A stretch of 64,000 nt of DNA from Patescibacteria group bacterium (lineage in GTDB: Bacteria; Patescibacteriota; Patescibacteriia; SG8-24; DYFX01). The translations under genes were made by a program, and so were the position numbers. The notes beneath the pieces are model-generated. The model was not told the origin of the DNA. It saw nothing but the letters and a program-made list of their open reading frames with translations, and made no database searches. Every line of letters begins with the position of its first letter. The stretch's first letter is position 1. The stretch is taken from the NCBI GenBank assembly GCA_030583805.1, contig CP129476.1, positions 509,429-573,428 of the forward strand, given 5' to 3'. Below are positions 6,772-52,200 of the stretch, in pieces.

Positions 6772-7890
6772 CTACCTCTTTTCCCCGTCGAGCGTCACGT
6801 CGACCGGCCGTTCGGCGCCGTCTTTCAGGACGTCGAAGCGGATTTTGGCTCCGGGCTCAAGCGTCGCGATCAGCTCGCTCAAATTGCGGCCATCGGTAAG
6901 ATCGGTGCCGTCGACCCGCAGAATGATATCCCCTTCCTGCAACCCGGCTTTGGCGGCGGATGATCCCGGACGCACGGCGGGCAGGCCCAGCGCGCGCGAA
7001 CCCGTGATGCGGGCGCCGTTCACGCCGCCGAATCCCCCGTCGGCGTAGGCCGTCACGTCGAGCGGCAACGTTTGGACGCCGAGCGTCGCCCGCACCGGAA
7101 CGTCGCCGCGGAAGATCTGCGTCAGCGCGGCGCTCACGAGATGCATCGGCACGAACGTGTCGGATCCGGCTTTCTCCGGAACGACGAAGCCTGCGAGATC
7201 GCCGTCGGCGGAAAGCACGGCGCTGCCGGCGGAGCGCGATCCCCAAGCGCCGTCCAGATGGAAGGCGCGCACGAAAAGGTCGGAGTTTTCCAAATGCAGC
7301 GCTTGCGACCGGCGGTTCACAGGCGTCGTCCCGGCAAACGCGGTCGCGACGAACATGCCGCCTTCGTCGAAGGCGTAGAGCGGCGTGCCCGGACGCAAGC
7401 CTTCCGTCTCCTCGAATCCACTGACCGGCAGCGCCGTTGCATCGACTTTCAAAAAGACGAGGCCGGTGCGCGGATCGGCAATGCGCGTTTTCGGTTCAAG
7501 CAACCGGCCGCCGACGGCAACGCTGACCTGTCCGGCGGCGACGGACGGAGCGGTCACGAGCCAGCCGTCCGACGTGAGCACCGTCGCGAATCCGACCGCC
7601 TCCGAAACGCCGCGGGCGCGCTGAGGCAATTCGGAACCTGCCGCGAGCCGCGGATAGACCGGCGCATTCAAGCGGTGAAGGCGTTCGGCGATTTCCGTCT
7701 GCGACAAGGCGCCGTTAACGGCGGTCGGCAGGCGGCCGATCTGCAGAGGCTCGACGGCGGTTGCCGAAAGGCCGGCGAAATACGATTCGACGATCAAGGC
7801 ACCAGCCAGGCCGGCAACGAGGCCGAGCAGGGCCGGAACGAACATCGAGCGCACAATTTCTCCCGTGGTGGTTTTTTTGGTGAAAAACAT
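6772..7890 (-). CDS. Membrane-anchored DegP/HtrA-like trypsin-fold protein with a C-terminal PDZ domain; the catalytic His/Ser motifs appear degenerate, so it may be a pseudoprotease
   Basis: N-terminal TM (FVPALLGLVAGLAGALIV), trypsin-like core, PDZ (GARITGSRALGLPAVRPGSSAAKAGLQEGDIILRVDGTDLTDGRNLSELIATLEPGAKIRF). There is no GNSGGP motif (GSRSAGSAV is found instead) and no TNxHV His motif. Confidence 0.55.
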   Translation of the reverse strand: MFFTKKTTTGEIVRSMFVPALLGLVAGLAGALIVESYFAGLSATAVEPLQIGRLPTAVNGALSQTEIAERLHRLNAPVYPRLAAGSELPQRARGVSEAVGFATVLTSDGWLVTAPSVAAGQVSVAVGGRLLEPKTRIADPRTGLVFLKVDATALPVSGFEETEGLRPGTPLYAFDEGGMFVATAFAGTTPVNRRSQALHLENSDLFVRAFHLDGAWGSRSAGSAVLSADGDLAGFVVPEKAGSDTFVPMHLVSAALTQIFRGDVPVRATLGVQTLPLDVTAYADGGFGGVNGARITGSRALGLPAVRPGSSAAKAGLQEGDIILRVDGTDLTDGRNLSELIATLEPGAKIRFDVLKDGAERPVDVTLDGEKR

Positions 7891-7891
7891 A

Positions 7892-8677
7892 TCAGACCCA
7901 TCGAGCGGTTAAGAGGACGAGCGCAAGCGCGCCGCCGGCATACAAGACGTATTTGCGAACCAAGCGTTCCGGCACCGTATCCGTCGCGCCGATCGGAAGC
8001 AAGTTGGCTGCCAAATAGTACACGATGCCGACGACGGCGCCGCCGACGAACATCGAGGTCGGCAGGTTGAGCGCGACGAGGTACGTCTGGACGACGACCA
8101 GGGCCGTGAGCAAGGTGCGTGAGCGCGGACGGACGCAGTGCGAAGTGCAGGCGAGAAACAAGTGCCAGCTCCACAGCAGCGCGACGACGATCATCGGCGG
8201 AATCGTCCACCACGTCTTCACGGGCAAGAAGGCCGGCACGCCGACAGCGACCGAAGCGACGAGAAACATGGAGCCGATATTGACCATGCGCGCGAACTCG
8301 GAAATCGTCAGGCGCTCTTCCGTCGCATGCGCGGCATCTTCGCGGCGCACATGCTCCAGGAACAGGAACAGCACGAAGCCGAAGACGGCGATAAACACGT
8401 GCCGGTTGGCCACCAGGTCGAGGAAGAGCAGCGAAGCGATCGTTGAAACGGCGATCATGAGCACCGCCGGCACGGCCACGGGCGTCAGACGGCTCTTCAG
8501 CTTGCCGTGAACGAGCGCGAAGAAGATGGTCAGGATCCACGCCGACGTCAGCAGGCTCCACCACAAGAAATCGTGCGGGCGATTAATCGAAACTTCGCTG
8601 AGCGCGATGAACCCGCCGCCGCCGAGATACGGCAGGATCGGAGAAATTTTGACGAGGCGGTCGTAGAACGACGACAT
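7892..8677 (-). CDS. Polytopic integral membrane protein, unknown function
   Basis: At least 7 predicted hydrophobic helices. It packs tightly (about 1 nt spacing) between neighbouring genes on the same strand. Confidence 0.45.
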   Translation of the reverse strand: MSSFYDRLVKISPILPYLGGGGFIALSEVSINRPHDFLWWSLLTSAWILTIFFALVHGKLKSRLTPVAVPAVLMIAVSTIASLLFLDLVANRHVFIAVFGFVLFLFLEHVRREDAAHATEERLTISEFARMVNIGSMFLVASVAVGVPAFLPVKTWWTIPPMIVVALLWSWHLFLACTSHCVRPRSRTLLTALVVVQTYLVALNLPTSMFVGGAVVGIVYYLAANLLPIGATDTVPERLVRKYVLYAGGALALVLLTARWV

Positions 8678-8678
8678 A

Positions 8679-9728
8679 TCAGCGGTTTGATTTCAAGAAA
8701 CGGAAGCCGTCCGCGACGACGATGCCGAGCATCATCGCGACCGGAATCGCGAGCAGCGCGCCGAGGAGGCCGGCGACTTTCACGCCGATCAAGAGCGAGA
8801 AAATGCTGACGATCGGGTGCAGCCCCGTGACCTTCTGCATGACTTTCGGCACGAGGATATGGTTTTCGGCCTGCTGGATCACGATGCACATGATGCCGAC
8901 CAGGAGCGCCTTGAGCGGCGAGTCGGTCAGGGCGATCAGGATGGCGGGAATCGCGGAGAAGATCGGCCCGATGTACGGGATCGATTCGGCAATGCCGGCC
9001 GTGAGCGCCAACACAAGGGCGTACTTCACGCCGAGAATCTTGAGCATGAAGTAGAAGGCGACGCCGATCACGAGCGAGAGGAGCATCTGCCCGCGCACCC
9101 AGCTGCCGATGCTTTTCTCGATGCGCTGGAAGAGGTCGACGAGATACGGCTGGTAGGCTTCGGGCGCGAGATTGCGGAACAAGCGCTTCAGCGCGTCTTC
9201 AGAAACGACCAGATAAAACGCGACGACGAGCACGATGACGAGCGACGCGAAGCCGGTGACGATACCTGTCAGCGTGGCGAAGACGCCGGCCGCGGCCGCG
9301 CCGACGGAATCGGAAGCGCTGGCGGTCGCTTGCTGCAAGTCGGCGCTCAAGCCGTGCGTGGCGGCGAATTCCTTGAGCGGACCGAACGTCGAAAGCATCT
9401 GCGCCCAGAGCGATCCCGAGTTGGAAAGAAGATCGCGCGATTCGAGAAGCACCGCCGGGACGAGCATCGTGAGCACGGCGGCGATCAGCGCGATGATGCC
9501 GGCGTAGAGCAAGAGCACGGCGAGGCCGCGGCTCATCTTCTTGGATTGGAACCACGAGGCGAGCGGATTGATGATCGAGGCGAGCACCAGCGAAACGAAA
9601 AACAGGGCGATAATGTCGCGGATCATGTACAGGAAGCCGCACACCAGCAAAAAGACGGCCACCTTCACGATCGTGGCGGTCGAAATGGTGATCACCTGCG
9701 GCTGGCGCTCCGGTCCGTTTTCCTGCAT
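8679..9728 (-). CDS. AI-2E family transporter (PerM/YhhT-like, UPF0118)
   Basis: Internal start MQENGPERQ..., then 8 TM helices with the typical AI-2E pattern (...LVLALTAGIAESIPYIGPIFSAIPAILIAL...). Confidence 0.75.
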   Translation of the reverse strand: MQENGPERQPQVITISTATIVKVAVFLLVCGFLYMIRDIIALFFVSLVLASIINPLASWFQSKKMSRGLAVLLLYAGIIALIAAVLTMLVPAVLLESRDLLSNSGSLWAQMLSTFGPLKEFAATHGLSADLQQATASASDSVGAAAAGVFATLTGIVTGFASLVIVLVVAFYLVVSEDALKRLFRNLAPEAYQPYLVDLFQRIEKSIGSWVRGQMLLSLVIGVAFYFMLKILGVKYALVLALTAGIAESIPYIGPIFSAIPAILIALTDSPLKALLVGIMCIVIQQAENHILVPKVMQKVTGLHPIVSIFSLLIGVKVAGLLGALLAIPVAMMLGIVVADGFRFLKSNR

Positions 9729-9780
9729 ACTTCGTTGGAAATATAGCAGGAAAACGGTACACTGACCAGCGTCCAACCGT

Positions 9781-10233
9781 ATGAACGCCATTCTCGCCAC
9801 GAACGACAAAGCGCGGTACGACTACGAGTTCCTCGAGAAGATCGAGGCGGGCTTAGTGCTCTCCGGCCAGGAAGTGAAGTCCGCCAAGACCGGCCACCTC
9901 AAACTCAAGGGCGCGCACGTCACGTTCCATCGCGGCGAAGCGATGCTGACCGGCGCGCACATCGCCCGGTACCCGAAAGCCGGCCCCCTCCCCGACTACG
10001 ACCCCGAACGCTCGCGCAAGCTCTTGCTCCACAAGAAGGAAGTGAACCGTTTGCGCGGAAAACGCGAGGAAGACGGATTGACAATCGTGCCGATTCGTGC
10101 TTATATAAAGGGCGGCCGCATCAAAGTGGAGCTCGCCGTCGCGCGCGGCAAGAAGCAATTCGAAAAGCGCGAGGCGATCAAAAAGCGCGACCTCGAACGC
10201 GAGGCGCGAGGCCGGATGAAGATCCGGCGGTAA
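9781..10233 (+). CDS. smpB: SsrA-binding protein SmpB
   Basis: 150 aa: ...YDYEFLEKIEAGLVLSGQEVKS...GAHIARY...LLLHKKEVNRL...KGGRIKVELAVARGKKQFEKRE.... This is the canonical SmpB length and motifs, and it lies directly upstream of the tmRNA. Confidence 0.9.
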   Translation: MNAILATNDKARYDYEFLEKIEAGLVLSGQEVKSAKTGHLKLKGAHVTFHRGEAMLTGAHIARYPKAGPLPDYDPERSRKLLLHKKEVNRLRGKREEDGLTIVPIRAYIKGGRIKVELAVARGKKQFEKREAIKKRDLEREARGRMKIRR

Positions 10234-10268: not shown

Positions 10269-10671
10269 GGGGATGACTAGATTCGATGGAGTTCGTTCTC
10301 AATTCGCGCAGGTTGACGGAGCCTTCCCGTCATGAATAAAAAGGCAAACGACTACGTGCCAACGTTCTCGCAAAAGTGAAGACGGCGTTCGCTAACGCGT
10401 TCGCTCCGTCCTTCGCTCCGGTCCTCGCCTAAGCGCGACTGACCCATCGCCCGTCGACATCTTCTAGACGGATCACGGTGTTATAAGAAGGTCCGCCGCA
10501 TGTTCCGCCGAGAGGCATGCGATACGGTTGGATCCAGGCACGGACGCATACGACTCGTCGCCTCTATGTATGTGCTCCGGTCCCTCACGGGAAAACTCGA
10601 GACGACTACGCCTGTAGTGCGCATTGTCCTACTTCCTCCAGACCCGGGTGCGAATCCCGGCATCTCCACCA
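10269..10671 (+). ncRNA. ssrA: tmRNA (ssrA)
   Basis: The 5' end GGGGAUGACUAGAUUCGAUGG resembles the canonical GGGGCUGAUUCUGGAUUCGACGG. The 3' end has a tRNA-like T-arm GGUGCGAAUCCCGG, then CAUCUCC pairing with the 5' GGGGAUG acceptor stem, then ACCA. It lies immediately after smpB. The internal tag ORF is ambiguous (a GCA resume codon follows AAAAAG; candidate frames end ...APVLA-stop or ANDYVPTFSQK-stop). Confidence 0.8.
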
Positions 10672-10679
10672 AAGAAAAG
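10647..10679 (+). repeat. 33-bp direct repeat copy 1 (ggtgcgaatcccggcatctccaccaaagaaaag), the 3' end of ssrA; putative attL of the integrated island
   Basis: Exact 33-bp identity with 17000..17032, seen directly in the sequence. Confidence 0.85.
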
Positions 10680-10723
10680 TGTCTCTCTACGAGGGGTATT
10701 TTTCTTTTGAATTAACAGTGAAT

Positions 10724-10756
10724 AAAAACCATCCTGAGACTACCAGGATGGTTTTT
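10724..10756. terminator. Hairpin aaaaaccatcctg-agacta-ccaggatggttttt, a bidirectional terminator candidate between ssrA and the 3' end of the HTH-HNH gene
   Basis: Perfect 13-bp inverted repeat with flanking A/T runs, seen in the sequence. Confidence 0.5.
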
Positions 10757-11771
10757 GTCTCCTCCTTGCGCCCCCCATGCACTTATTGCAGTAGACGCCC
10801 AGGTTTTTAAGGGAGTGGTCCTTGGTACTCCTCAGGTGAATAACATTCAGATCCTTGCCGAACCGTTTCTTATGTTCAGTTCTTTTCAGACCACACTTTT
10901 CACACTTCTCCCCCGCCGCCATCATGGCTTTTTCCCTATTGCCACCAAAGTCACGGTAGTCGTAGAAGCATCGTAAACAATATCCATGTTGGAAGTGTTC
11001 ATCAGTGGTCGTCCCACATCCGCGGCATTTCTCGTATTTACGTGACCACCTATCCCCCAAGCTATTAGACTTGGACATGTTCCTTTTGAACATGCATGAA
11101 CTACAAAGCACGATAAGATTTTCGAGGTCGCTGCCATCTCCAACCTTTTTTACGACGTTGAGGTCGTTGCCCGATTTCTTGTTGTACTCGTCTCTTGAGA
11201 TTCCGCAGTCCTCACAACTCTGCCGAGCCCGCTCAAGCGCCTTTTCTCGATTACCTCCAAAAGCGATTGCATCGTACCAACAGTTCGTGCAATACCCCTC
11301 TCTGAGATGCTTATACTTTGTCTTTCCGCAAAGTCTGCAACGTAGGTAGTTTCTCGCCCATCGAGACTTCACCTCTCGCTTTAACTTTTGATACTTTTCA
11401 AATACCGCTGGTACATACTTCTCCAGCTCTTCTTCCGTAACGTCGTATTGAAGCAGGAACCGTCCGTGGTGCGTGAAGGAGTCGATTGCCCTGAACATCT
11501 CGTCTTCTTTTTCCAACAGACGCGCACCCTTCACACGAGTCCTTGCGTCTTCGTGCGTCTTTTTTTTCGCCTCCACGAATGCCTTGAGATCAATCGCGAA
11601 GCCCCTTTCAACCATCGCGTTCACCTCGTCGTGCCAAAGTCTGTTCAGCAGCTGTCGAATGCGCTCCCGAGAAAGCCCAAGCTTGTCCCCGATTTCCTGG
11701 AACGTGTGGCCTTGCGCATAGAGGACCCCGACTGTGGCGTCCCGCTGGCTGTCTTTCTCAGGGGGGTTCAC
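10740..11771 (-). CDS. Sigma-70 region-4-like HTH protein with two tandem HNH-like nuclease repeats (each CxxC ... NL..LC..C)
   Basis: N-terminal GHTFQEIGDKLGLSRERIRQLLNRL is a sigma r4/LuxR-like HTH. Repeat 1: CRLCGKT...CTNC...CEDCGISRDEYNKKSGNDLNVVKKVGDGSDLENLIVLCSSC. Repeat 2: CRGCGTT...CLRC...CEKCGLKRTEHKKRFGKDLNVIHLRSTKDHSLKNLGVYCNKC. Low-GC codon usage. Confidence 0.55.
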   Translation of the reverse strand: MNPPEKDSQRDATVGVLYAQGHTFQEIGDKLGLSRERIRQLLNRLWHDEVNAMVERGFAIDLKAFVEAKKKTHEDARTRVKGARLLEKEDEMFRAIDSFTHHGRFLLQYDVTEEELEKYVPAVFEKYQKLKREVKSRWARNYLRCRLCGKTKYKHLREGYCTNCWYDAIAFGGNREKALERARQSCEDCGISRDEYNKKSGNDLNVVKKVGDGSDLENLIVLCSSCMFKRNMSKSNSLGDRWSRKYEKCRGCGTTTDEHFQHGYCLRCFYDYRDFGGNREKAMMAAGEKCEKCGLKRTEHKKRFGKDLNVIHLRSTKDHSLKNLGVYCNKCMGGARRRQKPSW

Positions 11772-13882: not shown

Positions 13883-14491
13883 CTATCTCACTACGTCAAA
13901 TACGGCCTTGCCGAGTTTTTTCTGCAAAAACCCGTAATACTCTGTGAGGCTTTTTACGAGCTTCGGCTCGAAACCACTCTTCCTGGCCTCATCGAGTGCT
14001 GTTCCTACCACGGCAATCCGTCCAGTCAGTTCCTCTGGTTTGGTTCTCACGCTTACTCCCAGGAACGAGTAGAGATCGGCCTCGATGATGTCGTCCGTCT
14101 TTCCGGTAAGATAGAGCGCAAATCCTTCAAGTCCTTTCATACGCAGAATCTCGGTCGCCGTAGAACGAGAAAGCCGGCTCGTGTCGTTTTTGACGGGCTT
14201 ACTCTTCCCGGAAAGCCTTCGCGCCTCGTCCAAGCCCCTAACAGTAAGGGAGAACATCTTGTTGGACGAACGGAGAAAGCCCGCCTTCTTGAGATTCGTA
14301 TAGAGCGGCTTGTGAACCAGGTCACCCGAATCGGGGTACTGCCGGTAGCCTTTCAGGTGGAAGTTGTCTGGGAAGAGCTCGTATACCTTGACTACTATGT
14401 CCTCATACCTGAGCGATTTGGTGCTGTCCTTGGACAACTCAAACATCGCCAGGAGGATTTTTTCCGATCTCGAGAGCGTGTCGTTGCTCAT
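13883..14491 (-). CDS. Hypothetical protein (202 aa) of the island
   Basis: Clean low-GC ORF MSNDTLSRSEKILLAMFELSKDSTKSLRYEDIVVKVYELFPDNFHLKGY.... The 8-nt gap to the GHKL gene suggests an operon. No recognisable motif. Confidence 0.4.
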   Translation of the reverse strand: MSNDTLSRSEKILLAMFELSKDSTKSLRYEDIVVKVYELFPDNFHLKGYRQYPDSGDLVHKPLYTNLKKAGFLRSSNKMFSLTVRGLDEARRLSGKSKPVKNDTSRLSRSTATEILRMKGLEGFALYLTGKTDDIIEADLYSFLGVSVRTKPEELTGRIAVVGTALDEARKSGFEPKLVKSLTEYYGFLQKKLGKAVFDVVR

Positions 14492-14492
14492 A

Positions 14493-14783
14493 TCACAGGC
14501 TGAAACCGTCGCCGTTTTTTGAACTCGTAAACCTGTCTTTTACCATTCGGAGCTCCCTATCTACTGCAGAAAACATCTTCCTGACTTCAGCCTCAGTATA
14601 GTCATACTGGCTCTTATTCGACAGATTACCGAGGCTTTTGATGCGCCTTAGGATGTTGTTTACCCGCAGGGTTGCGATACGCTTAAACTTGTCCGATTTT
14701 GTCTCTTTATTTTGCGACATATTTGGAGAATATTTGTCGAATATTGTTGCGCTATCTTTACCAAATATACACAAATCCGTCAA
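14493..14783 (-). CDS. Hypothetical small protein (up to 96 aa; an alternative start at MSQNKETK gives 75 aa)
   Basis: ORF sits between the dcm and the 202-aa gene with a 1-nt gap to the latter. Lys-rich. No motif. Confidence 0.3.
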   Translation of the reverse strand: MTDLCIFGKDSATIFDKYSPNMSQNKETKSDKFKRIATLRVNNILRRIKSLGNLSNKSQYDYTEAEVRKMFSAVDRELRMVKDRFTSSKNGDGFSL

Positions 14784-14799: not shown

Positions 14800-15783
14800 T
14801 TAACGAGAGGCAGTGTCCATTGCCCTTTTCATCTCCTTCGCGATTTCCCTGATAACCGGAACGGCGACCGAGTTTCCAAGGAGCTTATATGCCTGCCTGA
14901 CCGTCACAGGCATCTTGAACCCCTTATTAAAACCTTGTAGCGCCTTGCATTCATTAACCGTTAGACGTCTGATGCCCAAGGTATTAATCGGGCTTTTCAA
15001 GTCCGCTCCTTCGCCGCCATCCGAAGGAAGAATGCGGTCTTTCACAAGGTTCCTTTCCCTACCCATATTGCCAGCCACGAACGTATTGGCGATACCTTCG
15101 GGATCCAACACGCAATATCCGAAGTTGCTACCCGCATCGGAGTGCCTCTGCTTGTGCTTAATCAAACCGTCCATGTACTGCTTACTCAAGTAGTGGGACG
15201 GATGTGCGCCTTTCTCCAAAATCTCCTTCAATGGTTTTGGTGCTTTTCTTTTAAGATTATTGAAGCTGAAGTCTATTTTTGGGTTTTTAAATCCAACAAT
15301 AAAAACTCTTTCACGTTTTTGTGGTACTCCGAAGTCCTTGGCATTAAGTACCGCGACGTGGACCTGGTAGCCCAACTTCACTCGTAGAGACCGGAGTATC
15401 GTTTTGAGTGTCTCTCCACCTTCGTGTGAGACCAAGGCTTTCACGTTTTCAAACATGAAGGCCTTCGGTCGAGTCCTGTCGATTAAGTGCTCTAACACGA
15501 AAAAGGCGTTCCCACGAACGTCTTCGAAACCATGTCCCTTTCCTGCCCTCGAGAAGGGCTGACATGGGAAGCCTCCGAGCAATACGTCGTATTTAGGAAT
15601 CTCGAGTAAGTCAACCTCTTCGAGCGGCTTACATACGATCGGACCGTGGTTTGCGGCATAGACAGTTGCAGCATGCGCATCCATGTCGTTGGCAAAGACC
15701 GTCTGGAAGCCAGCCTTCTCAAAACCTAAACGAATACCGCCGATTCCGGCGAATAGGTCGATGCATCTATAGGCCTTCTTCAT
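14800..15783 (-). CDS. dcm: DNA (cytosine-5)-methyltransferase (Dcm-type C5-MTase)
   Basis: Motif I CIDLFAGIGGIRLGF. Motif IV GGFPCQPFSRAG. Motif VI ENVKAL. Motif VIII QKRERVFIVGF. Motif X KLLGNSVAVPVIREI. 327 aa. Confidence 0.9.
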   Translation of the reverse strand: MKKAYRCIDLFAGIGGIRLGFEKAGFQTVFANDMDAHAATVYAANHGPIVCKPLEEVDLLEIPKYDVLLGGFPCQPFSRAGKGHGFEDVRGNAFFVLEHLIDRTRPKAFMFENVKALVSHEGGETLKTILRSLRVKLGYQVHVAVLNAKDFGVPQKRERVFIVGFKNPKIDFSFNNLKRKAPKPLKEILEKGAHPSHYLSKQYMDGLIKHKQRHSDAGSNFGYCVLDPEGIANTFVAGNMGRERNLVKDRILPSDGGEGADLKSPINTLGIRRLTVNECKALQGFNKGFKMPVTVRQAYKLLGNSVAVPVIREIAKEMKRAMDTASR

Positions 15784-15924
15784 ACCGCTACAGTATAGTT
15801 CGAGCTTGATTTAGTGTCACTTTTCGGCGTTCAGAGCCCGGGATTGTTGGGGCGATCATGACGGACGGGTCCAAAATCAAAGACAGGATCAGAGATGATC
15901 CTGTCCGATGACTTTTTGGTACGG

Positions 15925-16364
15925 TTAGAAGGCGAAGGAACCGCTCTTGGAGCTACAGACAACGATGGTCACCTCTTTAGCCAAGTCGTCGATGTAGTGC
16001 CCCACCTCGTCTTCTTTCTTGTTTCTAACCTTAAGGGCCACATGCCCATCTTTCTTTCTACTTGTAAGTAACTTTGTGAACTTCTTAAACTTTTTATTGT
16101 GCTCAACAAAGTTGTTTCGATAGTACTCAATAAAAACTCCCTTAACCAAACCTTTCGGCGTTAGATACAAGGAGATTTCTTTGTTGACGTTGTAGAGGCG
16201 TGCATTCCTCGGCATTTTTGGCAGACCCCACTCCAAAGAGTCCATTTCTGAGTCATACTCAAAAACCCAACCATCTTTTTTGGCCAGTGAATCGAGATGG
16301 AGAATCTCGCTTTTAACAGTTTTGGTTACGTCGTGGGTCATATGATTTGCGGCTATGGCCATTT
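15925..16364 (-). CDS. Hypothetical protein of the island (about 146 aa starting MAIAANHMTHDV); the track ORF extends further 5' into an implausible Arg-rich overlap
   Basis: The low-GC Lys-rich body (...WVFEYDSEMDSLEWGLPKMPRNARLYNVNKEISLYLTPKGLVKGVFIEYYRNNFVEHNKKFKKF...) only begins after about residue 70 of the track ORF. Confidence 0.35.
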
Positions 16365-16724
16365 CCCGTGTACGCACGTCGTCTGGCCGTGTTCCCTGGG
16401 CTCGATTGCGTCGTCGTAATAGGTAGTTCGAACTGCGGCGGGGCTCGCGCCACTGATCTGGACAACGACCTTCACGAAGTTGTGACGAACCTGCCCGGAA
16501 GGCGTTACTTTGGTGCCAAGGGACCGATAGTAGCAGAGGGCGCCGGCGACCGACAGACTTTCGTAAACCCACTGCGGTGATACCAAGACGAGCTTCACCT
16601 TCTTGAGGTAGCTCTTATGTGCGAGGTATGGGCGCTTTGCAAGGTGATTCACGCGATTCACCTCATGGAAAACGACCCGTCGCCCTGCATAATCAGTGCA
16701 GTCTAAGCAGTTGCTCGGGGGCAT
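16353..16724 (-). CDS. Hypothetical protein at the attR-proximal end of the island (123 aa, CxxC ... H-rich N-terminus); possible decayed nuclease or recombinase remnant
   Basis: MPPSNCLDCTDYAGRRVVFHEVNRVNHLAKRPYLAHKSYLKK.... It overlaps the upstream part of the 15925..16572 track ORF, so only one of the two frames is real there. No confident motif. Confidence 0.25.
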   Translation of the reverse strand: MPPSNCLDCTDYAGRRVVFHEVNRVNHLAKRPYLAHKSYLKKVKLVLVSPQWVYESLSVAGALCYYRSLGTKVTPSGQVRHNFVKVVVQISGASPAAVRTTYYDDAIEPREHGQTTCVHGKWP

Positions 16725-16999: not shown

Positions 17000-17032
17000 G
17001 GTGCGAATCCCGGCATCTCCACCAAAGAAAAG
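17000..17032 (+). repeat. 33-bp direct repeat copy 2 (ggtgcgaatcccggcatctccaccaaagaaaag), a displaced copy of the ssrA 3' end; putative attR
   Basis: Exact identity with 10647..10679. It is followed by its own hairpin plus T-run (cctct-ccg-agagg cgtttttctttt). Confidence 0.85.
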
Positions 17033-17089
17033 CGCCCCTCTCCGAGAGGCGTTTTTCTTTTGTCATGCTACACTTACCCCAAGACACCT

Positions 17090-17326
17090 ATGAAAGACTC
17101 TCAAATCGAACTCATCGGCTGGTACGGAGCATTCGCCATTCTCTTGGCCTATGCGCTCGCGAGTTTCGGCATTCTCGAAACGCGAGGCGTCCCCTATCAG
17201 CTCCTGAACCTCTTCGGAGCGTTCGGCATCATTCTCGTTTCCATCAAAAAGAAGGCCTATCAGCCCGCCGCGCTGAACGTCGTGTGGCTGTGCATCGCCG
17301 CCATCGCGCTCATCCTCGCCCTATGA
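17090..17326 (+). CDS. Small two-helix membrane protein (78 aa)
   Basis: MKDSQIELIGWYGAFAILLAYALASFGILETRG...VVWLCIAAIALILAL. The 4-nt ATGA overlap with the next gene indicates translational coupling. Confidence 0.5.
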   Translation: MKDSQIELIGWYGAFAILLAYALASFGILETRGVPYQLLNLFGAFGIILVSIKKKAYQPAALNVVWLCIAAIALILAL

Positions 17327-17556
17327 ACCCCATCCGCCTTTCGCGCGAAGAGATAAAAAAGCTCGTCTACGGCATCGAGAGCTTGAACCAGGATCAACGC
17401 GCCCTGATCCGCGAAACGCTTGAAGCGTTGTCGCGCAGCTCGGACGCGCGCATCTCCCCGGAAGAACTCCGCAAGGCGTTGTCGCGCCTGCGCGCCGAGT
17501 ACAAGATTTCCGAAATCGACGCGAAGGCGGTCACGCGCGCCGTGTTTCCGTCCTGA
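17323..17556 (+). CDS. Hypothetical small protein (77 aa)
   Basis: MNPIRLSREEIKKLVYGIESLNQDQRALIRETLEALSRSSDARISPEELRKALSRLRAEYKISEIDAKAV.... The start overlaps the upstream stop (ATGA). Confidence 0.45.
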   Translation: MNPIRLSREEIKKLVYGIESLNQDQRALIRETLEALSRSSDARISPEELRKALSRLRAEYKISEIDAKAVTRAVFPS

Positions 17557-17618
17557 GACCGTTGACGTCCGTCCGAATTCCCGTATGATGCCGGGCACGG
17601 TCTGCCCAGGAGGATTTC

Positions 17619-18161
17619 ATGACCGCACCGATCCTTTTCGAACACCCGAACCGCTTCAACGCGGCGACCGACGCGCGCGGCATTGCCTGGCTCGCCGAAA
17701 CCGAGCTCGAACGGCTGGGCTTCCTGATGCGAAGCGTCGACCCGCGAAAGCCGTGGGGCGCCGAGATCAAGCTGCGCGGCAGTCCCGAACGGGCCATGAA
17801 GTTTCTCCTGTACTTCTTCGGCGACATCGACATCGCTCGCGAGCTGACGGATCCCGTCACGCCCAAGATCCTGCTCATCAAGCAGGCGGAGCGCTTGTCG
17901 TGGCACGTGCACGAACGCAAGCACGCGCATCTTCGCGTCCTGCACGGCCATGTCGGCGTCAGCTTGAGCGATACGGACGCGGAAACCGTTCCGAATGTCC
18001 ATCTGCCTGGCGCATACGTGAGCGTCCCGCCGCAGAAGCGCCATCGCCTTTTCAGCCTGAGCGGCTGGGCGGTCGTGGCCGAGATCGGGCGCGACATCGT
18101 GCCGGGACAACCGTCGGACGACGAGGATACGCGCCGGATCCGAGACGATTACGGACGGTAG
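17619..18161 (+). CDS. Cupin-domain protein (mannose-6-phosphate-isomerase-like cupin_2 motif)
   Basis: AGGAGG precedes the ATG. LSWHVHERKHAHLRVLHGHVGVSL fits the cupin G(x)5HxH(x)3-4E(x)6G pattern. Confidence 0.5.
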   Translation: MTAPILFEHPNRFNAATDARGIAWLAETELERLGFLMRSVDPRKPWGAEIKLRGSPERAMKFLLYFFGDIDIARELTDPVTPKILLIKQAERLSWHVHERKHAHLRVLHGHVGVSLSDTDAETVPNVHLPGAYVSVPPQKRHRLFSLSGWAVVAEIGRDIVPGQPSDDEDTRRIRDDYGR

Positions 18162-18236
18162 ACCGAGAACTCTCGGTCTTTTTCTTTTGAACGAAAAGAC
18201 CCGCCGTGAGGCGAGTCTCTTTCGGATCGGCGCGTC

Positions 18237-18446
18237 TTAGACGCGGCGGACACCGGCGGCGCGAGGGCCCTTTTCGGACGGCTCGACCTCGAAGGTGACC
18301 TTGTCGTCAACGCGGAGCTCGTCGAAGGTGACGTCGACGAGAGCTTCCGAGTGGAAGAAGACATCCTTGGAGTTGTCTTCCGGAGCGATGAAACCGAATC
18401 CCTTATCCGTAAGGCGCTTGATGATACCGTTCATGTGCGTGTACAA
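18237..18446 (-). CDS. Cold-shock protein (CspA family); the likely start is the internal MNGIIKRL (about 18434)
   Basis: ...KGFGFIAPEDNSKDVFFHSEALVDVTFDELRVDDKVTFEVEPSEKGPRAAGVRRV carries the cold-shock domain RNP1 motif GFGFI. Confidence 0.85.
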   Translation of the reverse strand: MYTHMNGIIKRLTDKGFGFIAPEDNSKDVFFHSEALVDVTFDELRVDDKVTFEVEPSEKGPRAAGVRRV

Positions 18447-18581
18447 ATGATTAAACGCAACGCCGCTTGGACGGAAATTGGCAACATTCCCGCGCAGAAG
18501 TCTTTGCTAAGCGAAATGATACCACAGTTCGCGGTTTTTTACAAGCCCCCGACCCCCGTCGGGTGCTACAATGGCTCCGCT

Positions 18582-19202
18582 ATGCCTTTCTCCGGATTCA
18601 GCCCGTCCGATCTCCGATTGTTCCGCCGACTCGACACGCCGGCCAAGGTGCAGGATTTTGTGAACGCGATTCCGATCAACCGCGAGCCCGAAGGCGACAC
18701 CGTCCTCTCTCCGCTCCGCGTGCTTCGCGAGAACCGGGCGCACTGCATCGAAGGCGCCATGCTGGCCGCCGCGATTTTCCGTTATCACGGCGAGAAGCCG
18801 CTCATCGTCGACATGGAAGCCGCGTCGTGGGACCAGGATCACGTCATCGCCGTCTTCAAACGCGACGGTCTCTGGGGCGCGATCTCGAAAACGAATCATC
18901 CCGTCCTCCGATACCGCGAACCAGTCTATCGCACGATCCGGGAATTGATCATGTCGTATTTCCACGAATACACGCCCGTGGGCGGCGAGAAAAAATCGCT
19001 GCGCGCCTATTCGCTGCCCGTGGATCTCACGCGTTTCGACAAGATCGGCTGGATGACGAGCCCGGAAGACGTCTGGGACGTCCCCTACTATCTGTGCGAA
19101 GCGAAACACTTTCCGATTTTGACGCGCTCGCAGATCGCAGCGCTCCGCAAGCTCGACCCGATTGAAAAAGAAACGAGCTCGCGGGAAGAATGGCCCAAAT
19201 GA
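18582..19202 (+). CDS. Hypothetical protein with a possible transglutaminase-like Cys-His-Asp core (AHCIEGAMLAAAIF ... H ... D); possibly leaderless
   Basis: Start MPFSGFSPSDLRLF. TACAAT lies 9 nt upstream of the ATG, with no SD sequence between them. Confidence 0.45.
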   Translation: MPFSGFSPSDLRLFRRLDTPAKVQDFVNAIPINREPEGDTVLSPLRVLRENRAHCIEGAMLAAAIFRYHGEKPLIVDMEAASWDQDHVIAVFKRDGLWGAISKTNHPVLRYREPVYRTIRELIMSYFHEYTPVGGEKKSLRAYSLPVDLTRFDKIGWMTSPEDVWDVPYYLCEAKHFPILTRSQIAALRKLDPIEKETSSREEWPK

Positions 19203-19230
19203 AAAAGCCGCGCTGAGCGGCTGGTCGCGC

Positions 19231-20301
19231 TTACCAGAGATAGCGGTAGACGGCACGAAACTCTTTCACGTATTGGAGATTGGCCTTGCTGAAGCCGTTT
19301 CCCGGCTTGTCCCAGGCGTCGGGGTGCTTGGCGATGATTTTTGCAGCGCCGTAGAGGCCGTGGTTGTACGCCGCGGCGAGATAGGCGCCTTGCTCGTTCG
19401 CGTCGGACTGCAGCCGCTTCAGGATCGTCGCGTCCAGCCGCGCGAGCGTGAAGTCGACGTAGCAGTACTGCGCCATGACGCCGTTGATGTGATCGCGCAC
19501 GCCCGCATAGAACTCCGCCTTGAGCTTGGCGTCGGGATAGTCGTCGCGTATTTCCGCGTACGTCTTGGGGCGGAATTGCGCGAGCCCGCCCGCGTCCGCG
19601 TCGGAGAAGGCGTGATCGTACGCGTCGCCCTGATTCGCGCCGATCAGCGAGAGGACACGGTTGGCCGTCGCTTCGGCGCCGCGCGCATCGAAGTCGGGCG
19701 GATCGATATGCTCGATAACGAGGAGCGTGAGAAGCACGCGTTCATCCACCATCGCCGTCACCAGCGTGTCGGGATCGGTTCGCGAACGCACGTCTCGCGC
19801 TTGCAGCTTGGCGATCGCGCGCGTGGCGATATCGTGAAGATACGCGCGTCCGCGCCGCCGCATCTCAGCGGTGTCGAGGTGCGCGCCGTACGGCGCGTAG
19901 ATCACGGCGACGGAACGACGTTTGCGGCCGAGCGGCCGCTTTTTCACGTTCGTCTTTATCGCCAACACGACAAAATCGCTCGGCGCGTCGACGCGGTACT
20001 CCGAATTCACGCCGTTCCGCTTCAAGAGCGTCACGCGGTACCCCTTCGTGACGGAGCGGCCTTTCCGCACCTTGACCACGGCGAGCTTCGCGGTGCCGGG
20101 CTTCCAGACGGCGAGCACGGCGTTATCGCCGCCGACCTTCGAAGTGCCGACGCTTTGGCCGGCGAGCTTCTTCTTGGCGCGCGCGATCATCTCGACTAAC
20201 GTCGGCGGCGAGACGGTCTTCGGCGGCTTCTTTTTGCGTCCGGCTTCGGCCGTCGCGGCGGTCAGGCAGCACAACAGAAAAAAGAACGCGATCGTCCGCA
20301 T
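19231..20301 (-). CDS. Secreted protein with signal peptide and a C-terminal lytic-transglycosylase (SLT)-like segment
   Basis: MRTIAFFFLLCCLTAATAEA is the signal peptide. ...AFSDADAGGLAQFRPKTYAE...AAAYNHGLYGAAK resembles the SLT-domain GLMQ...AYNAG signature, though the catalytic Glu is not obvious. Confidence 0.45.
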   Translation of the reverse strand: MRTIAFFFLLCCLTAATAEAGRKKKPPKTVSPPTLVEMIARAKKKLAGQSVGTSKVGGDNAVLAVWKPGTAKLAVVKVRKGRSVTKGYRVTLLKRNGVNSEYRVDAPSDFVVLAIKTNVKKRPLGRKRRSVAVIYAPYGAHLDTAEMRRRGRAYLHDIATRAIAKLQARDVRSRTDPDTLVTAMVDERVLLTLLVIEHIDPPDFDARGAEATANRVLSLIGANQGDAYDHAFSDADAGGLAQFRPKTYAEIRDDYPDAKLKAEFYAGVRDHINGVMAQYCYVDFTLARLDATILKRLQSDANEQGAYLAAAYNHGLYGAAKIIAKHPDAWDKPGNGFSKANLQYVKEFRAVYRYLW

Positions 20302-49273: not shown

Positions 49274-52200
49274 TTAGTCGCTCGCGTTCGGACCGTCGGC
49301 CCTGTTTACGTACTTGTTTTTCATGGTGAAGCGTCCTTCCGGCGAAGCGGCCGTCTTGTCGATGCGTCCGATGTACCACATGCACGGATTGCCGGAGATA
49401 TCCGAGACGGACGAGAGCAGGCGCGTCGTGCCGCTCGTGACGCCGGAGACGCTCGCGTCCGATCCCGATTCGATCGTGAAGATGGAATTGCTCTTGATGG
49501 TCGCGCTGGCCGCCTTCCACCAACCGCTGTTGCGATTGAATTCAGGCATGTTGGCGTAGTTGCCGTCCACGAAACAGCTGCCGCCGTTCGCAAAGACGTG
49601 ATAGGTGCCTTGGGGCAACGACTGGGTTGAAAGCACCATGATCTCAGGATCCGTGGCGTGCGTGCCTCCCGTCACGTCCCAGAAGAGACGGATGTGGTCG
49701 GCCGCGAAGTTGCCGTTGCCGACGTAGCGCGTATCTGCAGCGCTCGCTTTCCAGCCGAAGTACTTGGTCTGCCCTGCGAGAGGCCCTGAACTGTAGACAG
49801 CCTTCACATAGAGGTCTACTTCGTTGGCGGCATTGTGAGGCGTCGGCCACGAGATCTTGAAGCGGAAGTCGCCGGGCAGGAGCGTACCGTTGTCGCAACC
49901 GCCGGTATAAAGGCCGCAACCCCTGGAGCACAGGACCTGACCGGCTGTGCCGGCACCCTGTGAAGCGCAGCTCGGTGCCGATCCACCAGCGAACGTGTTG
50001 TTATCGCAGACTTCACCGTAGGCCGAATGGATGATGCCGTCACCGCAATAGCCTCCGTTCGGATCGTAGACGCAGTCGTTGCGGCAGACGTAGGTCGTGC
50101 CTTGACCGCGTGCTTGCGGATCGCCCTGGCCATCGCACTGTTCGCCGAATTGCGTCTGTCTCACGCTGTCTCCGCAGAATGCGGGACTCTTGGCGTTCGT
50201 GCCGAAGCAGGCGTTCGAGCAGTAGTTGCAGGAGCCGTCCATGCGGTAGGCCACGCACGGGCCGTTCGCGCCGCATTCAGCGTCGTTCGTGCACAAGCGA
50301 CCGTTCACCTTGCACTTCCTGGCCGTCGCCGCCGCCTGCGTATTCGTGTAGGGCTCGGGCTGGCACTGCGTATTGAACGCGATGCATTGACCCTCGCCGC
50401 CTTGGCAATACTGGCCGGAGACGCAGTCGGAAGCGCTGCGGCACGGCGCACCTTCAGGCGCGCTCGTTCCCGTCCCCGTATACGGAGTGTATCCGGGGTC
50501 GAACGACGTGCCCGTATCGCCGATATCCACGCGCGGCGGACCACCGCCGGACGCCGTTGTAACGGTCAGGTTTTGATCGCGCGTCGACATGTTGCCGTTG
50601 CCGTCGAAGGCGTCGATCGAGATGACGTGAATGCCGGCCGAAAGCGCGCCGACGTTGACCGAGCAGGCTGCCGAAGCGAGACGCGGATTATAGCGGCAGG
50701 TCTGGCGCAGCACTTTGACGCCGGCTGTCGTGAGGTAGATATCGATGTTATCGACAAGTGCGGCGGCATCCGTCACGTCCGAGACCGTAATAACAACGCT
50801 GTCAGCCGTGTTCGGGCTCGTAGGCGCCGTGGTGATCGGACCGATGACGGGAGGCGTCGTGTCGCCGGGGACTCCGGCGTTGCATTCGCCGGGACCGCAG
50901 GTCGCGAACGTCGCGATCGTGCCAGCGAAACGAAGCGCGGCTTCGCCAAGAGGTCCGTACATCGGGATCGCGACGTCGGAGCGCGCAAACCTCTGCTTTG
51001 ACGGAGCAGCGGCCGAAGGCGTAGAAGCGCCCGGATAGTTGCGGCAAACGCCCGGCAAGCAGTCGTTGTTCGTCGTGCAGCCTTTGACTCCGCTCGTGTC
51101 CGCCGGGTTCTGGTAGGTGCGGCTGCACCAGGCCGTGACGGGACCAGGGTCGCACGTTTCCGGCGGCGCCGTAATCGTCCGGTCGCCGCAGAAGGCGCCG
51201 GAGATCGTTTCGATCGAGCAGTCGTTCTTGCAGTAGTTGCAGACGGAACCGTATTGCGGCGTGCAGAGGACGCCGTTGGCCGCGCCGTTGTCGCACTGTT
51301 CGACGCCGGAGCGCACGAAGCCGTCGTTGCAGACGTTCAGGCGGCAGGACGTGAGACATGCTCCGTTCGGCGAATTCGCCGCGCCGTCGTCGCACTGCTC
51401 CGCGCCTTCGATCACGCCGTTGCCGCACGCGCCTGACGGACGGCAGACGGACCAGTCGTTGAACGTGCAGGCTTCGCCGACCGGTTCGGTCGCGGGTTTG
51501 CAGCTCTTGGCGCGCGTTTGCGGGAGGCCGCCCGGCGTCACGGCGCACAACGCGCACGTTTCTCCGCTGGCGCAGTCCGAATTGCTTGAGCAAGAAGCGT
51601 AGTTGCTCGACGCGCCGTTCGTGTCAGCCAAGGAAGAGCCGCTCGGAATGCAGACGCCGGGTGCCGTCGCCTGATTGCCGTCGCATTCTTCATCGCCATT
51701 CGTCTCGCCGTCGCCGCACCGCGGGCCGGCGCCGCGGCAGTCCCAGGCGCAGAAGCCGTACTCGCCGTTGTTCGCGCCGTCATCGCAGGTTTCGCTGCCA
51801 TTCCTCACGCCATCGCCGCAGAAGTTCATGCGGTCGGTGCAGACCGAAGGGAACGGCAAGCCGGAGCAGTCAGAATTCGTGGCGCATGCCTGCGCGAGAT
51901 CGCAGCTGCCGTCGGCGCAGTTGCCGTCGAAAGCCGCGCGCTTCGTAATATTGACGCAGCGTTTCACGCAACCCAGGCTGCCGCTGCGGCAGCGTCCGTA
52001 CTGGCCGTTTTGCGCGCCGTCGTCGCAGCTTTCACCCGCGAAGGTTTCGAGCGATCCGTTACCACAAGCGGCCGGTCCTGGGCAGGCGGTTTGCACCTGC
52101 CATTCGCACGCGGCGTTGCAGCTTTCGAGCGATTGGCCTCCGCTGGCGCAAGCGACGTTGCGCGTCTGACCGATCTCGCAAGCTTCCGTGCCTTCAAGCA

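Follow-up and report, generated by a model that had tools for sequence, protein, structure and literature searches.

A sigma-r4 protein with HNH-derived zinc modules as a candidate DNA-targeting subunit of a methylation-linked MORC/MutL-like ATPase cassette in Patescibacteria

We analysed a stretch of 64,000 nucleotides (nt) from a Patescibacteria group bacterium (GenBank assembly GCA_030583805.1, contig CP129476.1, positions 509,429 to 573,428), hereafter the window. An open reading frame (ORF) within it had been singled out by a sequence-only reading for its unusual architecture. The feature is real: on the minus strand, which the earlier reading had left unstated, it starts at position 11771, ends at 10740 and encodes 343 amino acids. 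Its product has exactly the sequence of P0001, deposited under the name 'MAG: sigma factor-like helix-turn-helix DNA-binding protein [Patescibacteria group bacterium]'. The gene belongs to a cassette of five co-oriented genes, 0-16 nt apart, in the order Dcm-type methylase, 75-residue protein, 202-residue protein (p200), ATPase and, as the last gene, the ORF in question, which we refer to as component 4 (Table 1). The reading that we favour, and for and against which we find the case evenly balanced, is that component 4 is a DNA-binding or targeting subunit bringing a MORC/MutL-like ATPase-p200 machine to DNA, and that the whole cassette serves as a paraMORC-type module for defence or a restriction-like function linked to methylation.

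Component 4 begins with a helix-turn-helix (HTH), which had been likened to an ECF/sigma-70 region 4 (sigma-r4) or LuxR-type HTH occupying the first ~80 residues. The peptide quoted in support, GHTFQEIGDKLGLSRERIRQLLNRL, is indeed present, and residues 18-44 match Pfam Sigma70_r4 (PF04545) with an E-value of 7e-8 and 32.3 bits against a curated cutoff of 24.1 bits. However, the HTH extends only over residues ~14-45, with its nearest relative being region 4.2 of primary sigma factors, and is followed by a helical linker. This linker of ~90 residues (~46-135) separates the HTH from the repeats described below, is conserved across the family (alignment A1) and is predicted with a local distance difference test score (pLDDT) of ~97. 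We found no match to sigma regions 2 or 3 in Pfam or NCBIfam, and the HTH begins at about residue 14, leaving no room for them; component 4 therefore carries a sigma-like HTH without being a sigma factor, and the candidate of a true sigma factor was rejected on the absence of these regions.

The same HTH could serve a transcription regulator that contacts either -35-like DNA or the flap of RNA polymerase and governs the operon or host genes in the manner of an oversized controller (C) protein, its zinc modules oligomerising or sensing a cofactor. Consistent with this idea, primary-sigma region 4.2 is the nearest match of the HTH, in which the RERIRQ motif is retained, the NCBI name is 'sigma factor-like', and the equivalent subunits that were scanned in other lineages combine domains of the transcription apparatus (alphaCTD, sigma r4 and delta-subunit-type HARE-HTH). 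However, classical C proteins of restriction-modification (R-M) systems have ~80-100 amino acids and an Xre-type HTH, and their gene lies upstream of the restriction gene, whereas component 4 has 343 residues, lacks sigma regions 2 and 3, and is encoded at the end of its operon and not ahead of a nuclease gene. Its architecture also co-varies with the ATPase cassette across phyla, a better fit to a stoichiometric subunit. We consider a regulatory role distinctly unlikely.

The remainder of component 4 consists of two tandem repeats, previously estimated at ~110 residues and in fact 104 residues long. They are identical at 46 of 93 positions, with an alignment score of 244 compared with 31 ± 6 for 1000 shuffles (z = 36). 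All 16 cysteines of the protein fall within eight CxxC pairs (145/148, 161/164, 186/189, 223/226, 249/252, 265/268, 290/293 and 328/331). Each repeat opens with a zinc ribbon (RWxRxYxxCxxCG..H...GYCxxCY), and its second half follows the pattern FGGNREKA....CxxCG....DLNVx[K/H]....N.L.NL.V.CxxCM. The CxxC pairs, as well as the motifs LNVVKK/LNVIHL and NLIVLCSSCM/NLGVYCNKCM, are present as originally described.

Profile searches identified the origin of these second halves. Three PHROG families of HNH endonucleases matched component 4 (E = 1e-12, 5.5e-6 and 1e-3), the best of them, phrog_8446, in two stretches. A profile from 48 family modules (alignment A2) matched the solved HNH domains of IscB (1.3e-4), phage GVE2 HNH (2.7e-4) and ZRANB3 (5.5e-4) and, more weakly, the non-catalytic DotN (E = 0.035) and McrA (0.16). 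Pfam HNH was matched individually by 27 of the 48 modules; the whole of component 4 gave no match to it at E < 1, while the repeat-1 module on its own reached 18.2 bits, under the 21.4-bit cutoff. In the predicted structure, the pLDDT exceeds 90 for residues 270-335 of repeat 2. By profile and fold, the second halves of both repeats are genuine homologs of the HNH superfamily, in accordance with the HNH-like identity first suggested, and the modules are derived from phage-type HNH endonucleases. TFIIS-type zinc ribbons alone were rejected as a description of the repeats, since the second half of each is HNH-derived.

HNH chemistry depends on an Asp/His-His...Asn...His/Asn set, exemplified by D839/H840/N863 of Cas9 and D40/H41/N62 of T4 endonuclease VII. 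We assigned the corresponding residues by aligning the modules to the A2 profile, IscB and GVE2. The structural zinc site comprises C186/C189 with C223/C226 in repeat 1 and C290/C293 with C328/C331 in repeat 2, and its four Cys columns are invariant in A2. At the position of the general-base His, which aligns with 'VAHI' of IscB and 'VDHI' of GVE2, repeat 2 has His312 but repeat 1 has Lys208, so that the catalytic His sought in each repeat is found in only one. The structural Asn, from a column at least 90% conserved, is Asn218 in repeat 1 and Asn323 in repeat 2. The last metal ligand, a His or Asn directly after the second CxxC, is replaced by Met227 and Met332, and the residue preceding the general base, usually an Asp or His metal ligand, by Val207 and Ile311. 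Judged by known HNH chemistry, the aligned residues indicate that neither repeat has a complete metal site and that the active sites of both modules are mostly eroded. The counter-hypothesis of the sequence-only reading, that the repeats are zinc modules without the catalytic His/Asn, holds for repeat 1 and by half for repeat 2, but not in its TFIIS-only form.

Component 4 is under strong purifying selection when compared with its 72%-identical ortholog P0002, and repeat 1 is the best-conserved segment, with a proportion of nonsynonymous differences (pN) of 0.10 compared with 0.17 overall; the synonymous counterpart (pS) is ~0.85 and saturated. This strongest conservation within the protein, despite the missing His, indicates that repeat 1 is functional without it.

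We next consider the partner proteins. The ATPase carries the Bergerat-fold motifs EWIKNSIDA, DFVGMD and GGHGNGG, with the ATP-binding motifs intact. Its predicted structure (pLDDT 82) matched MORC2 (E = 2.6e-9) and the N-terminal domains of MutL proteins (5e-8 to 3e-6) in Foldseek, as well as Topo VI-B and GyrB, the matches spanning ~430 columns. Together, the motifs and the structural matches identify it as a GHKL+S5 ATPase of the MORC/MutL kind. By sequence, Pfam gave a weak HATPase_c_3 match only, a search of PDB gave none, no Pfam domain was found in the 120 homologs listed, and among the more than 635 homologs above threshold none has a functional name, the named ones being 'hypothetical' or 'uncharacterized'. 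The C-terminal extension (residues ~456-697) comprises a conserved beta-rich domain and a helical domain with no match to a known family. Many of its residues are invariant, including D579, Q599, R600, D603 and the motif W610-I-N-T613, and it may harbour a hidden catalytic function. For p200, searches of Pfam, NCBIfam, PADLOC and PHROGs returned no family match; its N-terminal ~90 residues gave a sensible topology against HARE-HTH winged-helix segments, which was not significant (hhalign E = 0.017, probability 2.7%). Neither the ATPase, p200 nor the 75-residue protein was matched in PADLOC, NCBIfam or PHROGs, and models for the four non-methylase proteins of the cassette are all absent from PADLOC.

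To place the cassette in a wider context, we used the ATPase, independently of component 4, to gather 80 related loci from GTDB species representatives and scanned them with hidden Markov models made here. The p200 gene is directly upstream of the ATPase gene in 74 of 77 loci. Among the 50 loci with enough flanking DNA, 35 have Dcm, 25 Vsr and 16 a serine recombinase, and the fourth subunit is of the Zn/HNH type in 21; a weaker sigma-r4 match is present in 15. On contigs with relatives of component 4, the order small protein-p200-GHKL ATPase-component 4 is the same, often with a convergent Dcm, Vsr and a large serine recombinase nearby; relatives of the DnaA_C type show an altered gene order and no methylase. 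The ATPase family occurs in the candidate phyla radiation (CPR), Nitrospirae, Acidobacteria, Verrucomicrobia, Planctomycetes, Actinobacteria, Ignavibacteria, Myxococcales, Solirubrobacterales and Elusimicrobia. No helicase gene was found between the att-like repeats that bound it in the window, or in the related cassettes examined. Genes with Shedu (SduA_C), SIR2_2 and RelA/SpoT domains lie beside Dcm-less cassettes (L022 7009-8139, L010 4499-5518 and L036 11955-14966, respectively), which suggests that the latter reside in defence-island neighbourhoods. A MutL-like repair module assisting Vsr at Dcm damage was considered and not adopted; the island in the window has Dcm without Vsr, no Vsr being found anywhere in the window, and many cassettes have neither.

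The constancy of this arrangement bears on the idea that component 4 is homing-endonuclease-like, a selfish HNH enzyme that landed beside the cassette by chance. Its Zn-ribbon plus HNH unit does resemble phage HNH endonucleases, as the phrog_8446 match illustrates, and among the short relatives, P0050 and P0051 are HNH proteins of the canonical, stand-alone kind. However, component 4 is not free-standing: it is the conserved last gene of an operon, and genes of its type follow the GHKL gene in dozens of loci from various CPR lineages. Purifying selection on a protein whose catalytic residues are eroded, together with the failure to find an intron, intein or phage-module context, also speaks against a selfish element, and we regard this explanation as highly improbable.

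The fourth subunit itself varies considerably. Component 4 represents a 'long' form, the closest in appearance to HNH, and of the 562 representative clusters obtained at E <= 1e-3, only three reach E <= 1e-30 and make up its close double-repeat clade. In the cassette-linked proteins found through the ATPase, ~30 of 39 modules are of a short form ('GRDFYITK..VLCRKCF') that has no His and in which the Asn loop is deleted. Most cassette-linked fourth subunits of Parcubacteria have this short module ('C..CGI.R..A...GRDFYITK...VLCRKCF'), with Lys, Arg, Thr or Ser at the His position. The unit of Zn ribbon and short module is doubled in L018, L026, L027, L029-L032, L034, L038 and L039, and some Parcubacteria subunits additionally carry alphaCTD and DnaA_C domains. 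Among the fourth subunits scanned with Pfam, which did not include those of Verrucomicrobia, the proteins with a weaker sigma-r4 match from Microgenomates, Nitrospirae, Acidobacteria and Terriglobia (470-960 residues) combine RNA_pol_A_CTD repeats, Sigma70_r4 and HARE-HTH and contain no nuclease domain; the Ignavibacteria proteins scanned have Sigma70_r4 with or without alphaCTD and no HARE-HTH match.

In the non-Parcubacteria loci L040-L043, L046, L047, L049, L053, L055, L061, L063, L068, L072, L073 and L086-L089, of which the Pfam scan covered all except L068, L072, L087 and L089, the subunit is a mosaic that joins 1-3 alpha-CTD domains to an almost full region 4 of the primary-sigma kind and, except in the Ignavibacteria proteins scanned, to HARE-HTH; it is encoded within a methylase/Vsr/MORC-like operon. 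We also observed that the more intact H-N-H variants (L023, L044 and L078) tend to sit in loci without a nearby Dcm, and that variants with a deleted catalytic loop (L011-L014, L017, L018, L020, L021, L024, L025, L028 and L029) are usually accompanied by Dcm and often by Vsr. This trend is the opposite of simple R-M logic.

Because modules without His/Asn, or HARE-HTH, fill the same position in relatives, HNH catalysis by the fourth subunit is evidently not needed for the cassette. The domain swaps further imply that the fourth subunit is a sigma-r4-centred protein with interchangeable DNA-binding domains.

The cassette of the window is located on a 6.35-kb island at the transfer-messenger RNA (tmRNA) gene, which was detected by Rfam and not by ARAGORN. 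The island is bounded by att-like direct repeats, and its GC content of 45-56% stands out against 58-67% in the flanks (7000-10000 and 17250-20000), a value that seems high for a Patescibacteria genome. No integrase or recombinase was found within the island. Its two overlapping leftover ORFs, which had no match in Pfam, NCBIfam, PHROGs or PADLOC, could encode a small pair of the toxin-antitoxin kind or be what is left of the mobility genes of the element. The operon terminator is a palindrome that has a T-run on the plus strand as well, and may thus also serve downstream of tmRNA. Taken together, the att-like repeat, the GC drop, the serine recombinases near related loci and the Shedu/SIR2/RelA-SpoT neighbours of Dcm-less loci point to a mobile or defence setting.

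Table 1 Features of the component 4 locus and its surroundings in the window.
Feature	Coordinates	Strand	Evidence and details
smpB, just upstream of ssrA	9781-10233		SmpB Pfam match
tmRNA gene (ssrA), integration target of the island	10269..10671	plus	Rfam RF00023, 76.2 bits, E 1e-28
Left copy of 63-nt direct repeat (tmRNA 3' end and terminator region), att-like boundary	10647..10709	plus	
Intrinsic-terminator hairpin and U-run at operon end	10724..10756	minus	Component 4 stop codon in loop; RNA fold dG -21.5 kcal/mol, z -4.3
Component 4 ORF	10740..11771	minus	343 aa, GTG start; sigma-r4 HTH, helical linker, 2 x (Zn ribbon and HNH-derived module)
Repeat 2, aa 240-343	10743..11054	minus	Ribbon C249/C252/C265/C268; module C290/C293...C328/C331; His312, Asn323, Met332
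Repeat 1, aa 136-239	11055..11366	minus	Ribbon C145/C148/C161/C164; module C186/C189...C223/C226; Lys208, Asn218, Met227
All-helical linker domain, aa 46-135	11367..11636	minus	pLDDT ~97; consensus in family alignment A1
Sigma-70 region 4.2-type HTH, aa 14-45	11637..11732	minus	RERIRQ recognition-helix motif kept
MORC/MutL-like GHKL+S5 ATPase, 697 aa	11781..13874	minus	Bergerat motifs, Foldseek
p200, 202-aa protein directly upstream of GHKL gene	13883..14491	minus	
75-aa conserved small protein	14493..14720	minus	Probable ATG start 14720; in CPR and Nitrospirae cassette versions
C-5 cytosine DNA methyltransferase (Dcm type), first gene of operon	14800..15783	minus	Pfam PF00145 E 1.4e-86; PADLOC MTase_II 8e-99
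Sigma-70-like promoter match GTGACA-17-TATACT, just upstream of methylase start	15792..15820	minus	10/12; consensus match only
Two overlapping leftover ORFs (215 aa, 123 aa), between methylase and right att-like repeat	15925-16724	minus	
Right copy of 63-nt direct repeat, displaced tmRNA 3' end	17000..17062	plus	89% identical to left copy
Single giant ORF, 3418 aa, elsewhere in the window	49274-59530	minus	

In the targeting model introduced above, the cassette is built on the MORC/MutL-like ATPase and p200 and would be co-transcribed with Dcm from the small island at the tmRNA gene. Component 4 would tether or load the dimeric ATPase clamp onto DNA, with the HTH and the HNH-derived zinc modules providing the DNA contacts. 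These modules would act mainly as extra DNA-contacting or DNA-reading domains, like the alphaCTD, DnaA_C and HARE-HTH domains in the subunits scanned from other lineages. Repeat 2, with His312 and Asn323, might keep a weak, ATPase-regulated nicking activity, which the comparative data do not require; component 4 could thus be a weak nickase at most. The whole cassette would be a paraMORC-type system, linked to methylation, with a restriction-like or defence function, and it is probably defensive.

Several observations weigh against this model. The general-base His is kept in 40 of 50 long-form modules of sequence relatives, a conservation not easily reconciled with a purely structural role, which leaves room for catalysis. 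Repeat 2 of component 4 keeps both His and Asn, and a minority of relatives, including P0030, P0039, P0045, L023 and L078, have the full H-N-H set. No other convincing nuclease was recognised in the cassette of the window, so that component 4 is the sole visible nuclease candidate if the system restricts DNA. Moreover, ~30% of the fully flanked cassettes have no nearby Dcm, so 'R-M-like' cannot be the whole story, and DNA binding by the modules is something that we infer from their sequence relationships.

Much of this evidence can be read in favour of an active nuclease effector, in which component 4 serves a paraMORC-type R-M system as its restriction subunit. Positioning on DNA would fall to the HTH together with repeat 1, and repeat 2 would nick or cleave DNA without Dcm methylation under the control of the GHKL ATPase, the active and inactive HNH modules forming a pseudo-dimer. 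In addition to the HNH homology, the retention of His and Asn in repeat 2 and most long-form relatives, and the minority of relatives with a full H-N-H set, the double-repeat relative P0223 keeps His in both repeats, the operon with Dcm is tight, and paraMORC1 has been reported beside HNH genes (PMC2292703). However, neither of the usual metal ligands is present, the CxxC-H position being Met and the general base being preceded by Val/Ile, and the Pfam HNH model is not reached by the whole protein or, at its cutoff, by the repeat-1 module. Most orthologous subunits linked to the cassette are without His and Asn, or without HNH altogether, and the tendency of the more intact variants towards Dcm-less loci is the reverse of what R-M would need. 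We consider a nuclease effector possible, although the balance is against it. The sequence-guided cleaving effector proposed from sequence alone is accordingly weakened, given Lys at one general base, Met as last ligand, Val/Ile before the base and a catalysis that the cassette can dispense with.

A further alternative dispenses with nucleases entirely. The cassette could carry out MORC-type DNA silencing, in which component 4 and p200 recognise either DNA without the 5-methylcytosine mark made by the cassette itself or -35-like promoter elements of incoming DNA, and load a compacting or blocking ATPase clamp. We rate this mechanism as unlikely. If it were true, the cassette would be a bacterial counterpart, possibly a forerunner, of methylation-linked eukaryotic MORC silencing, with the HNH fold reused as a DNA-reading zinc module.

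The findings have several implications. The ATPase defines a family of hundreds of members (more than 635 above threshold) with no functional name, no Pfam or NCBIfam family and no PADLOC model. Of prokaryotic proteins it resembles the MORC proteins of eukaryotes most closely, and it has a physical link to cytosine methylation. Around a sigma-r4 HTH, the fourth subunit is built as an exchangeable module for DNA binding, and in one lineage its HNH domain is seen at several stages of active-site loss, which offers testable hypotheses for the targeting of MORC-like clamps to DNA. It also illustrates that nuclease calls made from CxxC/HNH spacing alone can mislead. To our knowledge, few defence systems are known in CPR bacteria, and the cassette would be a new one for them if it is a defence system.

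Comparison with known systems places component 4 among proteins that each share part of its design. Zinc-finger HNH endonucleases (PF01844; McrA, CBASS Cap5, phage GVE2 HNH and the HNH of IscB/Cas9) share the fold of the modules; component 4 differs from them in having Met as last ligand in both repeats, no Asp/His before the general base, Lys in repeat 1, a tandem duplication, a sigma-r4 fusion and a whole-protein score below Pfam significance. IcmJ/DotN has a comparable HNH-like zinc scaffold with an incomplete active site, and the similarity is marginal (DotN, E = 0.035); unlike component 4, DotN is a protein of the type IV secretion coupling complex, with no HTH and no DNA role. From R-M controller proteins, component 4 is set apart by its length, its sigma-r4-type HTH and its place at the operon's end. 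The alphaCTD + Sigma70_r4 + HARE-HTH proteins occupy the same place beside p200/GHKL and have in common with component 4 the sigma-r4 motif TLEEIG..TRERIRQ, but in those scanned, of 470-960 residues, HARE-HTH/alphaCTD replace the Zn-ribbon/HNH modules.

At the level of the whole system, MORC/paraMORC ATPases have been predicted to function in R-M operons with Dcm, Vsr and HNH proteins (Iyer, Abhiman and Aravind 2008, PMC2292703), among which paraMORC1 has a C-terminal extension beyond S5 as well as HNH neighbours (PMC2292703). The present cassette resembles these operons in its GHKL+S5 ATPase with a C-terminal extension, its cytosine methylase, often a Vsr, and its HNH-type protein. However, it has no superfamily 2 (SF2) helicase, which is typical there, it has an obligate p200 partner and a 75-residue protein, its HNH-type protein has a sigma-r4 HTH and an eroded site, and ~30% of its cassettes are without a nearby methylase. 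In paraMORC3, which is Shedu type I-D (VcSduA), phage protection was shown experimentally (PMC12137116). As the present cassette would, it links a GHKL ATPase with an effector that targets DNA, in a mobile defence setting, but it does so in a single polypeptide with a PD-(D/E)xK (DUF4263) nuclease and with no methylase, p200 or HTH subunit. Taken together, the cassette fits the kind predicted in 2008 (PMC2292703), yet is not catalogued in PADLOC, and the domain architecture of component 4 is unusual but not unique, being one variant of a sizeable uncharacterised family.

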